Assembly (NCBI GenBank): GCA_012212665.1
Contig: GCA_012212665.1_4517.1
Length of the DNA stretch: 64,000 bases
Direction: 5' to 3' (one strand)
Source: a phage
The notes beneath the pieces were generated by a model. That model had not been told where the DNA came from. It did not search any database and saw only the letters and a program-made list of their open reading frames with translations. Below, piece by piece: positions 2,173 to 64,000 of the stretch. Within the stretch, counting starts at the first letter, position 1, and each line of letters starts with the position of its first letter. The position numbers were made by a program, and so were the translations under genes.

Positions 2173-2445
2173 TTAGTTGTTAGAATACATCGCTAAATGA
2201 CGATAAATATTTTCAAAACCTTCATTGAATTCACTAATCAGTGTTTTCTTTTCTTCGGCAGTTAAATTTGTAATTAGTTTTCTGAACGAATTCTGATTTA
2301 GCTGCCGACCATCTTTTTTAATTCCAATCTCATTCAAGAATCCGATGAAATTTGCTCGGTCTTCAACAATATCTTCCCTAGAGAATTTAATCAAAATAGA
2401 AGCAATAGTAATAATTTCACGTACGATTTCAATGTCTTTATTCAT
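2173..2445 (-). CDS. asiA: Anti-sigma-70 factor AsiA
   Basis: 90 aa, near-identical to T4 AsiA (MNK.I..VREIIT.ASILIKFSREDIVE.RANFI.FLNEIG...NEGFE). Confidence 0.9.
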   Translation of the reverse strand: MNKDIEIVREIITIASILIKFSREDIVEDRANFIGFLNEIGIKKDGRQLNQNSFRKLITNLTAEEKKTLISEFNEGFENIYRHLAMYSNN

Positions 2446-2491
2446 AACGTTTTATTCATTCCACTTAATTGTTAGGAGTATAGTACCATTA

Positions 2492-2707
2492 TCAGTGTTG
2501 ATTGTAAACGGCTTTTTCTACGCTTTTAACGTAATCAATGTAGTCTTCCTGTTCGTACGAGTGTAAGGCTAAGAACGAGGCCAATAGTTCATTATAGATT
2601 AAAGCCTCACGCTCACGTTCGGCCTCTACTACGTTCTGAAGATTATGACTCATATTGTTCCTTATAACTATCAATGTAGTCCTGTATGTCAAAGAACGAC
2701 ATTTCAT
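2492..2707 (-). CDS. Hypothetical small protein
   Basis: ORF of 71 aa in the asiA-motA interval; start uncertain; partly overlaps the neighbouring ORF. Confidence 0.3.
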   Translation of the reverse strand: MKCRSLTYRTTLIVIRNNMSHNLQNVVEAEREREALIYNELLASFLALHSYEQEDYIDYVKSVEKAVYNQH

Positions 2708-2942
2708 ATTCTAGGACATTAAGAGCCCGTTCTTCAGTATAGTCAGAACCAAAGACGATAGTGATTTCACCAGGCTTCATATGATTGAAATCAACGCTAA
2801 AAGGAATACGAGAACATACTTCGTCTGCCATATCTACGATAACACTACGATACACTTCTCGGTTAACCTGATAAAGCTCTGCAAGTTCTTCACATCGAAT
2901 AACAAGTTCAGTGGCAGGATTTTCTTTGATTTTAGTAAACAT
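2643..2942 (-). CDS. Hypothetical acidic protein, possibly Arn-like anti-restriction protein
   Basis: Position next to asiA as for T4 arn; acidic C-terminus (EYEMSFFDIQDYIDSYKEQYES); start taken at an internal Met. Confidence 0.35.
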   Translation of the reverse strand: MFTKIKENPATELVIRCEELAELYQVNREVYRSVIVDMADEVCSRIPFSVDFNHMKPGEITIVFGSDYTEERALNVLEYEMSFFDIQDYIDSYKEQYES

Positions 2943-3025
2943 AGTCTTTACCCTTATGTTTTTGTTTACGCTTAGATTGAAGTTCTGATTTCTTCTTGTC
3001 CTTATGGACAGAAGCCTTATTGAAA

Positions 3026-8033: not shown

Positions 8034-8059
8034 GGTGTTATCCTCTTTTAGATAGGACT

Positions 8060-8089
8060 ACTATACCATAATCCTACTGTGTTGTAAAC
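8060..8089 (-). promoter_or_regulatory. Early promoter, copy 2 of the duplicated 38-bp block
   Basis: Identical to 7548..7577; GTTTAC -35 and TGgTATAGT -10. Confidence 0.55.
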
Positions 8090-8101
8090 ACTTTTATGAA
8101 A

Positions 8102-12296: not shown

Positions 12297-12321
12297 AATA
12301 TTCTCTTCAGTAGATTCCTAG

Positions 12322-12372
12322 GGCACTATTACTAAAGACCATATAATCTATCATCTTATGTGTAATAGTGCC
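12322..12372 (-). other. 11-bp perfect inverted repeat (GGCACTATTAC / GTAATAGTGCC) with 29-nt loop
   Basis: Located between the glycosyltransferase stop and the rIIA.1 start; loop contains a TATAAT-like element. Confidence 0.5.
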
Positions 12373-12388
12373 TCAGGCGATTCAGGAT

Positions 12389-18207: not shown

Positions 18208-18236
18208 AATTTTCTCTCTTTGTTTAAGTTGAATTC

Positions 18237-18266
18237 ATTATACTCCATCCGTCCTTGGATGTACAA
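18237..18266 (-). promoter_or_regulatory. Early promoter (variant of the TTATACTCCAACCATCCTTGGTTGTAAAC family)
   Basis: Minus strand TTGTAC-18 nt-TATAAT upstream of the 17722..18207 gene. Confidence 0.45.
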
Positions 18267-18268
18267 CA

Positions 18269-18763: not shown

Positions 18764-18794
18764 AATGTTTTTCCTGTTTGGTTAAGATAGAAAG

Positions 18795-18824
18795 ATTATA
18801 CTCCAACCATCCTTGGTTGTAAAC
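18795..18824 (-). promoter_or_regulatory. Early promoter (conserved family block)
   Basis: Minus strand GTTTAC-18 nt-TATAAT; 30-bp block nearly identical to 60774..60803 and 61794..61822. Confidence 0.55.
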
Positions 18825-18829
18825 TGATT

Positions 18830-28635: not shown

Positions 28636-28663
28636 TTTAACTCCTTAGTTGATTTGATAGGAC

Positions 28664-28694
28664 TACTATACCATAGTCCATCTATAATGTAAAC
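28664..28694 (-). promoter_or_regulatory. Early promoter upstream of sp
   Basis: Minus strand GTTTAC...TGGTATAGT; shares the GGACTACTATACCATA block with 7541 and 8053. Confidence 0.5.
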
Positions 28695-28698
28695 AAGT

Positions 28699-52220: not shown

Positions 52221-52283
52221 GATATTTTCCTCATTTTAAGACGATAGGAAGATAATAACATGTCTTCCTATCGTTGTACATTA

Positions 52284-52496
52284 TTAACCGAACTTTTTAG
52301 CGCCTTTCCAGCCTTCGTACATAGTTGCGCAAGTCAATAGCACAGCATGTTGACATTCTTTGTATTTGTAAATCCAGAACCAACGTAAAAAGTCTTCATC
52401 CTCAACACCGTTGAGTTTCATATTGGCAAAGAATTCGGCACGTTCTTCACGAAGTTGCCATGACACAATATTTTCAGGATTCATTTTGTGTTCCAC
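52284..52496 (-). CDS. Hypothetical protein (55.x)
   Basis: ORF of 70 aa. Confidence 0.4.
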   Translation of the reverse strand: MEHKMNPENIVSWQLREERAEFFANMKLNGVEDEDFLRWFWIYKYKECQHAVLLTCATMYEGWKGAKKFG

Positions 52497-52615
52497 GCCC
52501 CGTTTTCGTCGATGAACTTAATCCAGTCATTTACAGACCATTTAGTTGTATCACCCTTTGGATTAGCATTTAAAGTATATAATCCCTGCTTAAAAAGCAT
52601 TCGTTTGATATTCAT
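52481..52615 (-). CDS. Hypothetical small protein
   Basis: Start placed at the internal Met with a GAGGAAA Shine-Dalgarno; the longer ORF would overlap its neighbour. Confidence 0.35.
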   Translation of the reverse strand: MNIKRMLFKQGLYTLNANPKGDTTKWSVNDWIKFIDENGAWNTK

Positions 52616-52622
52616 AATTTCC

Positions 52623-60745: not shown

Positions 60746-60773
60746 AATATTTTCCTCTCGTTAAGATAGGTTC

Positions 60774-60803
60774 ATTATACTCCAACCATCCTTGGTTGTA
60801 AAC
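60774..60803 (-). promoter_or_regulatory. Early promoter (conserved family block)
   Basis: TTATACTCCAACCATCCTTGGTTGTAAAC on the forward strand, i.e. GTTTAC-18 nt-TATAAT on the minus strand; near-identical to 18795..18824. Confidence 0.55.
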
Positions 60804-60807
60804 TGAT

Positions 60808-61767: not shown

Positions 61768-61793
61768 TTTATATTCCTCATGTTGAAAAATTT

Positions 61794-61822
61794 ATTATAC
61801 TCCAACCATCCTTGGTTGTACA
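61794..61822 (-). promoter_or_regulatory. Early promoter (conserved family block, -35 variant TGTACA)
   Basis: TTATACTCCAACCATCCTTGGTTGTACA block upstream of the 60808..61767 gene. Confidence 0.5.
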
Positions 61823-62818
61823 TCATTCCTTAAGAAGTTTTACTACCTGAATAAGATTAGCTCGTTCTGTTTTATTTTTACCATTTAAGCCTGCTAATCG
61901 TGAGATTTCATCGTCAGTCTGTTGAATAGTTACATTAAGTTCATTAATCAAAGCTTCAAAGTATTTGATTTGCTCAGCATGTTTTGATTCAAATTTCTGA
62001 ACCGGAATAACGTCTTGGTTTAGTTCGTCAATAAGGTCTTTAAGAGCATCTTCTTGGTTGATATCATATTCAACTTCTTTTATTTCTTCAACGAGCTCGT
62101 CTTTATATCTAACGTCTTTTAGTCCTGGTGCTGGTCCTGAAATCTCTTCTTTAAGAGTACAAACATACCCAATACGGTATCCAATGCCGTCTCGCTTAAT
62201 ATCAACTTCGTCGATAAATCCACAATGTTTAAGACCAGAGCCGATTATGTCAAAATATCCTTGACGTCGTCCTTCAAACGTTACACGAACTACTAAGACA
62301 GTTTTGCCACCAACCTTTTGAAGCTCACATTTATAAAAGTCTGTTGAACCTGAATAACGTGGATGAGTTTTAAAGTTCATCTGACGATCTAGGCCCATTT
62401 GTAAACGTGCTGTTACGGCCATAAAACGTGTTTGGTTCTCGTTAAGATGAGCAACAATCCATTTCAAAGGCATTTTACACTGTTCACGACCGAACAAATC
62501 AGTACGTCCTAGATTACGCAGGATATTGTTAGAGTTAATCATCGACAGAACGTTAAGTTTATTCAGCGCGCTGAAGATTCCATCAGCCATTGATTTTCCA
62601 TAACCTTTACACGCTTTAATAAGTGCTCGCGGCAGATTAGTATAGATTTCAGACGGCATATGAAAATCAAATTTACTAGTCAGTAATTGATGAACTTGGA
62701 TAGCAATTTGCTCATAATTAAGTGCTCTGCGATCGTTATGGTCTTTAAACCACACTTTAATCTGTGAAGCACATAAACCGTTAATTTCATGTTTTACCGC
62801 ATCAGATGTAATGCTCAT
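61823..62818 (-). CDS. Hypothetical protein with acidic region and C-terminal coiled coil
   Basis: 331 aa. Confidence 0.5.
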   Translation of the reverse strand: MSITSDAVKHEINGLCASQIKVWFKDHNDRRALNYEQIAIQVHQLLTSKFDFHMPSEIYTNLPRALIKACKGYGKSMADGIFSALNKLNVLSMINSNNILRNLGRTDLFGREQCKMPLKWIVAHLNENQTRFMAVTARLQMGLDRQMNFKTHPRYSGSTDFYKCELQKVGGKTVLVVRVTFEGRRQGYFDIIGSGLKHCGFIDEVDIKRDGIGYRIGYVCTLKEEISGPAPGLKDVRYKDELVEEIKEVEYDINQEDALKDLIDELNQDVIPVQKFESKHAEQIKYFEALINELNVTIQQTDDEISRLAGLNGKNKTERANLIQVVKLLKE

Positions 62819-62880
62819 AACTATTTCCTCAGATTGAATTGGAACTCAAAACCATTATAACCCGTCCTTGGGTAAAGCGT

Positions 62881-63408
62881 TTATGCGTGAACCGTCTTTA
62901 AACGTTCTTCAAATTTCCGAAGAGTACTAATACGTTCTGCTTTCTGTTTTGTATAGTTTGCAATACGTTCTGAAGTGAGAGCGTATCGTTCGTTTACTGT
63001 TTCTTTCATGAAGTCAGGGATTTCACGAGAAGCTTTAATTTCATCAAACTTGTCGAGTACTGCCTGGTCTTCAGCGATTAAATTTTCATACATCTCGATA
63101 TCTTTCTTGATAAACTCGATATCTTCCTGGGTTACTTTGGATAAACGAGACGCTTTATCCTTTTTGTACTGCTCGTTAGTTTCACGAGACCAGAATAATG
63201 TACGTTTTTTGTTAGTGTTTTTGTAGACTTCCACAATTCCAACTGAATCGATGATAACAATCCAATTCCAGCGAGATTTGAAAATCTGACCTCCGTCAAC
63301 GGTAATCTCGTTATCATAAGCAACGTCATTAAAGAACTTGCTTTGTGCTTCAGATTTAAATTTACCGTCGTTATAATTTACCAGGTTGAAAATATCTTTA
63401 GCGTTCAT
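62881..63408 (-). CDS. Hypothetical protein
   Basis: 175 aa with GGAGGT Shine-Dalgarno and upstream early promoter. Confidence 0.5.
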   Translation of the reverse strand: MNAKDIFNLVNYNDGKFKSEAQSKFFNDVAYDNEITVDGGQIFKSRWNWIVIIDSVGIVEVYKNTNKKRTLFWSRETNEQYKKDKASRLSKVTQEDIEFIKKDIEMYENLIAEDQAVLDKFDEIKASREIPDFMKETVNERYALTSERIANYTKQKAERISTLRKFEERLKTVHA

Positions 63409-63435
63409 GTTTTACCTCCAGTAGTTGATAGGTCT

Positions 63436-63464
63436 ATAATAACATAACCATAGACCTTGTAAAC
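63436..63464 (-). promoter_or_regulatory. Early promoter
   Basis: Minus strand GTTTAC-17 nt-TATTAT with the GGTCTATAATA block shared with 4971 and 29971. Confidence 0.5.
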
Positions 63465-63466
63465 AA

Positions 63467-63754
63467 CTAAAAGAAACTTTTTTCAGTATTTTTTCCACTG
63501 AACCAAACAGACTTCGGGATTTTTTGTAATTTTTCAGATTTAAGTTTCTCTTCCTGTTCTTTCTTATATACACTCTTGTCGTACTGGAGCATCTCTATGG
63601 CATTCTTTTGCAAATGATCTAAGGTAATTAAGGCTTTAGTTTTTCCTTTCAAGGAAGAGTCCTGGCGAACTTCCTCGCTATATTGCATCGTAGAACTAAC
63701 CATACGATGTGCATACAGTTCGACTGCGGCTTTGATTTTTTGCATAAAATCCAT
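63467..63754 (-). CDS. Hypothetical protein
   Basis: ORF of 95 aa. Confidence 0.45.
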   Translation of the reverse strand: MDFMQKIKAAVELYAHRMVSSTMQYSEEVRQDSSLKGKTKALITLDHLQKNAIEMLQYDKSVYKKEQEEKLKSEKLQKIPKSVWFSGKNTEKSFF

Positions 63755-64000
63755 AACATATCCTCTTTGATTTGTACATCATTATTTTTAAATATTTCTA
63801 TGCCCTCAGTAGGTTCCTAGTGTCCTTCTTTGAGGTAAGCCATATGATTATTCATCTTTATGGCTTTTGTTACCTCAGGACTTCCTGTAAGCTTATTTCA
63901 GTAAAGTTACTTCAGAGATTTCCTCCCAACCATCTTTATCAGTTGAAATAAAATCTGCTACATAAAGAGCCGTACGTAATGATACATTGCGAAGACGAGA

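Follow-up and report, generated by a model that had tools for sequence, protein, structure and literature searches.

What occupies the last 250 bp or so of a 64,000-nucleotide stretch of phage DNA (the whole stretch is hereafter the window), where no long open reading frame had been listed: a new RNA gene, or something more familiar? The preliminary description, made from the letters alone, took positions 63755-64000 for an ORF-free, highly structured region that could hold a small non-coding RNA, a processing site or a complex terminator. Our analysis indicates that the flagged region is ordinary, half of it an artefact of the window edge and half a T4-like intergenic spacer, and that it is not a new RNA gene. 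For the spacer we favour, at a probability of roughly 0.6, a degenerate cassette of the PeSL type (defined below) at a recombination-prone junction, its stem-loop intact and its promoter decayed.

The window edge and its hairpin

Over positions 62800-64000 the window shares 99% identity with Mosigvirus genomes such as those of Shigella phage SSE1 and Escherichia phage S143_2 (T4-like, Straboviridae). On a crude ORF map the minus strand carries 97 of the 104 ORFs of the window, whose end falls, by its position in annotated relatives, in the nrdC-mobD hyperplastic block of small early genes. Close to half of the flagged interval belongs to a gene truncated at the window edge: 63896-64000 encodes the C terminus of NrdC.10, is annotated as such at the equivalent place in S143_2 and SHSML-52-1 and is ~99% identical here, and only 63755-63892 is non-coding, not 250 bp (Table 1). 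The gene is absent from the ORF list because its reading frame extends beyond the end of the window, and the preliminary description overlooked it for that reason too.

Table 1. Coordinates of the features discussed, all on the minus strand of the window.
Feature	Position	Strand	Remarks
NrdC.10 homologue (T4 y05F, 36.7 kDa; phrog_1250), last 35 codons	63896..64000	-	translation ...DKDGWEEISEVTLLK; PHROG match
nrdC.10 stop codon TAA	63893..63895	-	
nrdC.10-nrdC.9 intergenic spacer, 138 bp, truly non-coding	63755..63892	-	
Imperfect hairpin	63822..63881	-	dG -18.5 to -21.4 kcal/mol, z -5.2
-35-like GTAACA	63868..63873	-	15-nt spacing to the loop AATAAT; T4 has A(A/T)GACA in this place
Hairpin loop, 14 nt	63845..63858	-	contains -10-like AATAAT at 63852..63847
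15-mer CTAGGAACCTACTGA (Y at one position; also given as CTAGGAAYCTACTGA)	63806..63820	-	exact in the paralogue at 12307-12321
AT-rich 39-nt segment	63767..63805	-	absent from the paralogue and T4; holds part of the site scoring 5.7
Shine-Dalgarno AGAGGA of nrdC.9	63761..63766	-	6 nt before ATG 63754..63752
NrdC.9 homologue, 95 aa	63467..63754	-	33% identity to T4 NrdC.9, E 7e-8
Paralogous spacer	12297..12388	-	upstream of the 66-aa rIIA.1 homologue; hairpin 12318-12377

The NrdC.9 homologue and T4 NrdC.9 share a C-terminal WFSGKNxExSFF; tblastn with the T4 protein returned near-identical Tequatrovirus copies only, and a related-locus search with NrdC.9 only two loci. Copies of the spacer were found by blastn against phages in 144 records, all Mosigvirus or unclassified and at least 94.7% identical, and none outside this Mosigvirus-type set. 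Many nrdC.x ORFs, including NrdC.8, NrdC.9 and NrdC.10, are labelled 'thioredoxin' in the records of relatives and are of unknown function in PHROGs; the label appears to be name propagation from the adjacent nrdC gene, not homology. A further 'gap' of the crude ORF map, at 52485-52622 on the minus strand, holds a small ORF (MNIKRMLFKQGLYTLNANPKGDTTKWSVNDWIKFIDENGAW...) similar to the one immediately after nrdC.10 in IMG/VR loci L014 and L015 (MNIKKMLFKQGLYEVKTPKGDTTKWSINDWIDYIDKNGTWLF); it looks like a small gene moving between junctions.

The nested inverted repeat lies where the preliminary description had placed it: TGAGGTAA (63831-63838) pairs with TTACCTCA (63870-63877), and GCCATA (63839-63844) with TATGGC (63859-63864); there is a 5-nt bulge at 63865-63869, and outer arms GTCC/GGAC (63822-63825 and 63878-63881) lengthen the helix. 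Read as minus-strand RNA, the order is GUCC-UGAGGUAA-(CAAAA bulge)-GCCAUA-(14-nt loop)-UAUGGC-UUACCUCA-(AAGAA)-GGAC, giving an irregular helix of 4 + 8 + 6 bp (4 + 7 + 7 as folded; ~19 bp) with a bulge and an internal loop. The loop and adjoining stem bases make up the motif AAGATGAATAATCATATGG, whose form is AAGATGATAGATTATATGG in the paralogue and ATAGATTATATGG in T4. A 57-nt piece folds at -18.5 kcal/mol (z -5.2) as minus-strand RNA and with z -4.5 as plus-strand RNA, none of 200 shuffles folding as well on either strand, and the fold of the whole spacer has z -3.1 on the minus and z -2.3 on the plus strand. The hairpin starts 11 nt past the nrdC.10 stop codon; the Shine-Dalgarno sequence of nrdC.9, 55 nt downstream of the outermost stem of the hairpin, has no pairing partner in the predicted fold.

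Of the 'stable RNA structure or small non-coding RNA' put forward earlier, the stem-loop stands, being stable beyond chance, and the small RNA lacks support from Rfam, a promoter or a terminator. ARAGORN found 0 tRNA or tmRNA genes in the window, in agreement with the earlier remark that no cloverleaf was evident. The covariance-model scan that had been suggested as a check was run with Rfam and gave no significant match: there were 0 matches in the whole window at gathering thresholds, and in a permissive E-value search of 63300-64000 every match had E > 2 and a score far below the gathering threshold. A scan of 63300-64000 for intrinsic terminators yielded 0 sites on either strand. Rho-independent terminators of the same genome (4940-5128, 24637-24855, 30382-30469 and 42836-42916), and the T4 nrdC.11-nrdC.10 spacer, likewise have a hairpin right after a stop codon, but all of these combine a G/C-rich stem, a UUCG-type tetraloop and a T-run, whereas the loop of the focal hairpin is 14 nt long and its 3' flank on the minus strand is AAAGAAGG; because it has no U-tract, intrinsic termination is unlikely. 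A plus-strand terminator, made of the inner hairpin and the TTTTGTT that follows it, was rejected: its stem is weak, its loop has 14 nt, the scan gave 0 sites and there is no plus-strand gene here. A processing site or complex terminator, both raised in the preliminary description, is a possible role for the hairpin as modelled.

Promoters and homologous spacers

Promoters were scored with a simple sigma-70 weight matrix (PWM), with random 151-nt pieces of the same strand as the null. A consensus sigma-70 scan of both strands found no promoter within the spacer, and on the sense (minus) strand the PWM found no site over background: the top site, CTGAGG-N17-AATAAT (63809..63804 and 63786..63781), scores 5.7, equal to the random median, and 55% of random pieces score as much or more. 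Neither a middle (MotA) promoter, searched for as GCTT-N13-17-TAnnnT, nor an exact late promoter TATAAATA occurs on either strand of 63740-63910. The hairpin holds the degenerate GTAACA-N15-AATAAT (PWM 0.6), and TGGCTT-N17-TAGGAA, the counterpart of a second T4 site, is without T-7 and has its TAG changed to CAG in 10 of the 12 aligned Mosigvirus copies.

Other spacers nearby in the window show a promoter-in-hairpin design with scores of 8 to 10.8. The typical minus-strand spacer of the window is 55-70 nt long and follows one of two designs: a G/C-rich tetraloop hairpin with a T-run, then GTTTACA...TATAAT; or a GTTTACA or TGTACA -35, then a hairpin with the -10 in its loop or 3' arm (63409-63466, 8034-8101, 28636-28698 and 52221-52283 are examples). 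Judged by their sequences, spacers of both designs match PeSL cassettes. Several promoters also have a small hairpin in common, ACCAAGGATGGT (CCAAGGATGG), placed between their TATAAT and the -35 or MotA box; it is seen at 60746-60807, 61768-61822, 18764-18829 and 18208-18268 of the window and in the spacers upstream of T4 nrdC.3, nrdC.4 and nrdC.7, and is conserved between Mosigvirus and T4.

Three spacers can be aligned: the focal one, its paralogue at 12297-12388 and that between nrdC.10 and nrdC.9 of T4. All three have CCTGAGG and the loop motif AAGATGA(TAGATT or ATAATC)ATATGG, and the T4 counterpart of the 15-mer in Table 1 is ACTAGAATTAAACTG, which contains the T4 -10 TAGAAT; at up to 3 mismatches the 15-mer has 6 matches, a number that 0 of 100 shuffles reach. 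The focal spacer and the paralogue are alike in the loop motif and its flanking motifs and differ in stem sequence. Around the loop motif the hairpins have z of -5.2 (focal), -6.1 (paralogue) and -4.9 (T4), with stems of different sequence and register. What the alignment of the three homologues supports is that a hairpin is kept, not that pairs covary one by one, since the stems are not positionally homologous. Searched with an nhmmer profile of the three spacers, the window, 12 kb of T4 and 19 related loci yielded no more members; within the 64-kb window, nhmmer and a motif search agree on one paralogue only. Exact 14-mer scans of IMG/VR with GATAGATTATATGG and AATAGATTATATGG returned chance matches in unrelated AT-rich contigs and one true homologue. 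The stem of the paralogue has 11 bp (GGCACTATTAC/GTAATAGTGCC), its loop holds TGaTAGATT, an extended -10-like motif, and the paralogous spacer is present in all 155 Mosigvirus records, the RB69 type included.

By alignment, then, the spacer is shown to be homologous to the T4 nrdC.10-nrdC.9 spacer, and the homologous hexamers and spacings score as poor here. Among nine Tequatrovirus spacers, chosen mostly from the divergent end of the ranking, a hairpin-bearing block of 41 nt, GACAAAAAGGCAGTTCAGAAATAGATTATATGGACTGCCAT, is invariant in 9/9 and its flanks are variable. The Tequatrovirus spacer contains ATGACA-N17-TAGATT (PWM 8.6; ATGACA in five of the nine, AAGACA in T4 itself) and TGGACT-N17-TAGAAT (PWM 9.6, just above the null 95th percentile of 9.5), so scored, good sigma-70-like promoters that the predicted T4 spacer hairpin overlaps. 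At the same junction, the Serratia phage CHI14 group has TTTACA-N17-TATGAT (PWM 10.3) inside a hairpin, AGCCATCATA/TATGATGGCT, that resembles the focal AGCCATA/TATGGCT, and the Kosakonia/Enterobacter/Edwardsiella group has TTTACA-N17-TATAGT within a hairpin. The published literature searched gave no transcription-start or promoter coordinates for the T4 nrdC.9 region.

Two side observations concern terminators. In the IMG/VR T4-like contigs L020-L022 a classical terminator, GGGAGGAgaaaTCCTCCC with a T-run, replaces the promoter hairpin just past nrdC.10. In phage ASO78A (L275, MZ726795.1) the 'rho-independent terminator' assigned by WebGeSTer at 388-431, overlapping the nrdC.10 stop codon, is a weak hairpin distinct from the conserved one; that record annotates no promoter in the spacer and has T4-type promoters annotated elsewhere.

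Variation at the junction and kinship with known elements

An alignment of 12 Mosigvirus copies included eight taken from the divergent end of the 144-record ranking. TH12 lacks exactly the 5-nt bulge, so that its stem pairs perfectly over 14 bp (dG -24.4 kcal/mol); the deletion also takes away part of the -35-like hexamer. Single uncompensated stem mismatches occur in 3 of the 12 copies (dG -13.9 to -15.7 kcal/mol), which points to weak, if any demonstrable, constraint on base pairing; substitutions are about as dense in the hairpin as in the rest of the spacer. RB69, phiE142 and phiC120 have no spacer: the nrdC.10 stop codon overlaps the nrdC.9 Shine-Dalgarno sequence (TGAGGAAATTATG), the first ~25 codons of nrdC.9 differ, and identity then returns to near 100%. 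Since the spacer is gained, lost or swapped along with the 5' end of nrdC.9, it travels with nrdC.9 as a cassette; the element is also dispensable. In T6 (L274, NC_054907.1) a 239-aa 'DNA endonuclease' ORF (2293-3012, minus strand) lies between nrdC.10 and the spacer, as it does in Lv5cm, SHFML-11 and SYGD1; Pfam yields no match to it at E <= 0.01. The T6-type insertion has its break precisely at the cassette's -35-like hexamer, which the stop codon of the ORF overlaps. As far as these alignments tell, the spacer sits at recombination breakpoints. A variant of another kind is that of phage SQ17 (L267, MW882907.1), where NrdC.9 is annotated through the spacer as a protein of 130 aa (128-517), likely an annotation artefact produced by one inserted nucleotide, private to SQ17, beside the Shine-Dalgarno sequence.

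PeSLs (promoter-early stem-loops) are described by Arbiol et al. 2010 (PMC2839356) and Comeau et al. 2014 (PMC4122927) as intergenic cassettes of a sigma-70 promoter and a stem-loop, found in hyperplastic regions of T4-type phages and associated with indel and replacement breakpoints, 'degraded' copies that retain the stem-loop being known. For T4/PST the same papers give the promoter consensus TTTACW-N17-TAYWAT and put the stem-loop immediately upstream of the promoter instead of around the -10 (PMC2839356, PMC4122927). In the terms of Comeau et al. 2014 (PMC4122927), the 'degraded (1/2) PeSL', with its stem-loop kept and its promoter lost, is the category to which the focal copy corresponds. 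The focal spacer resembles PeSLs in being intergenic among small early genes of the hyperplastic nrdC-mobD region, in its stable stem-loop followed by the Shine-Dalgarno sequence and ATG of the next gene, in its position exactly at insertion, deletion and replacement breakpoints between close relatives, and in having orthologues whose sigma-70-like promoters fit TTTACW-N17-TAYWAT. Its homologous copy at another junction of the window, the paralogue, may be a further likeness. The focal spacer differs from PeSLs in that the focal copy has no promoter above background, that its stem is AU-rich and bulged, not G/C-rich, and lacks a U-run, and that hairpins of this family carry the -10 in the loop or beside it, not downstream of the stem-loop.

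Other elements offer partial likenesses. Hairpin-embedded promoters were reportedly described by McPheeters and colleagues in 1986, and in related work, for T4 e, soc, 49 and I-TevI. In these genes the internal promoter is a late one, and the 3' arm masks the start codon with its Shine-Dalgarno sequence. Common to them and the focal spacer are promoter hexamers within a stem-loop, with read-through RNA holding the whole hairpin and internally started RNA not; in the focal spacer, however, the Shine-Dalgarno sequence is far off and unpaired, as noted above, and the internal promoter is of the sigma-70 type and degenerate. Intercistronic hairpins for mRNA processing or stability are also known, such as T7 RNase III sites and REP-type 3' stabilisers. 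Like them, the focal element is an irregular bulged helix between two cistrons of an early polycistronic mRNA, with neither promoter nor U-tract, but it has no sequence similarity to the T7 R site, and the resemblance is of form only.

Alternative readings and possible roles

The main rivals of the degenerate cassette are a weak surviving promoter and a functionless relic. On sequence alone the former is possible: the spacer would keep a weak non-consensus promoter for nrdC.9, either GTAACA-N15-AATAAT with its -10 in the loop or CTGAGG-N17-AATAAT, and the hairpin would be part of that cassette. In its favour, orthologous spacers of the T4, CHI14 and Kosakonia types have good promoters at the corresponding position, and nrdC.9 and the cassette move together. 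The loop AATAAT agrees with TATAAT in five of six bases (A-11 and T-7 included) and GTAACA with its own consensus in four of six, and the AT-rich tract could serve as an UP-like element. We nevertheless consider this reading unlikely, given a strongly unfavourable 15-nt spacing, scores of 0.6 for the hairpin site and no better than the random median for the other, the empty consensus scan, the five bases that TH12 lacks in or next to the -35-like hexamer, the loss of the TAG of the T4 -10 equivalent in 10 of 12 aligned Mosigvirus copies, and RB69, which expresses nrdC.9 without any spacer. Ranked after it, and likewise doubtful, is the view that the hairpin is neutral, a palindromic remnant of earlier recombination or of promoter-cassette decay that is functionless in RNA and DNA. 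The absence of the element from RB69, phiE142 and phiC120, the uncompensated mismatches in three variants and a substitution density like that of the remaining spacer all fit such a relic, and with all copies at least 94.7% identical its persistence could reflect recent common ancestry. Harder to square with neutrality are the strong stems that the focal spacer, the paralogue and T4 each keep around the same motif despite their differing sequences, the sole stem indel (TH12), which takes out exactly the bulge to give the perfect 14-bp helix, and the T4-type hairpin, invariant between variable flanks.

An sRNA gene or a micro-ORF is unlikely. As an independent small RNA gene the spacer would have in its favour a stable fold, significantly better than shuffles on both strands; no Rfam match and no tRNA or tmRNA was found, no sense-strand promoter rises above background, the both-strand scan found none in the spacer, and there is no terminator on either strand, so that such a gene is unsupported. 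The element moreover sits between two annotated genes inside a co-oriented early polycistronic array on the minus strand, is missing in three close relatives and has promoter regions as its homologues, all of which makes this reading extremely improbable. We give the lowest standing, a negligible one, to a coding spacer, whether through a micro-ORF (MNNHMAYLKEGH followed by a stop codon; minus strand, from 63856) or through an N-terminal extension of NrdC.9 such as the 130-aa form annotated across the spacer in SQ17. The ATG in the conserved ATATGG does open short ORFs in all three homologues, but no Shine-Dalgarno sequence precedes these ATGs, the peptides (MAYLKEGH, MDCHQKDD and MVFSNSALGIY) are unrelated, the stop codon TAG is CAG in 10 of 12 aligned Mosigvirus copies, which shifts ORF length and frame, the SQ17 extension is due solely to its private insertion, and T4 NrdC.9 aligns from its N terminus with the 95-aa form. 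Both coding forms were rejected, since frames and peptides are not conserved among the homologues and copies compared.

For the degenerate cassette, we infer that nrdC.9 is expressed here mainly by read-through from an early/middle promoter that precedes nrdC.10 (GTTTAC...TATTAT with a TGCTTTA box), located in a 48-nt spacer beyond the window edge, as seen in S143_2; the hairpin would therefore lie within a bicistronic minus-strand nrdC.10-nrdC.9 mRNA. Its most likely role there would be to punctuate the transcript: as modelled, it may pause or weakly attenuate RNA polymerase, or, once the nrdC.10 message is cut in the AU-rich tract downstream, may shield its 3' end. At the DNA level, the cassette could provide a short homology patch for module exchange. 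A bolder proposal, to which we assign very little probability, is that the hairpins of this family (focal, upstream of rIIA.1 and upstream of T4 nrdC.9) form an unrecognised cis-regulatory RNA operator, in which a protein-bound AAGAUGAUAGAUUAUAUGG-like loop is presented on stems of unrelated sequence; if it were true, a phage or host protein would regulate small early genes at the level of processing, stability or translation, without regard to any promoter function.

Altogether, at least five different arrangements occur at the nrdC.10-nrdC.9 junction: a promoter intact in the hairpin (T4, CHI14 and Kosakonia groups); a hairpin kept and a promoter decayed (most Mosigviruses, this window included); a terminator hairpin with a T-run (the three IMG/VR T4-like contigs); complete loss (RB69); and an endonuclease-like gene inserted at the cassette edge (T6). 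Annotations here call for caution, one record having the spacer as coding and another a 'terminator' on a different weak hairpin. The finding is of little import for biology at large and is a tidy example of how a promoter and stem-loop cassette evolves at a single junction.
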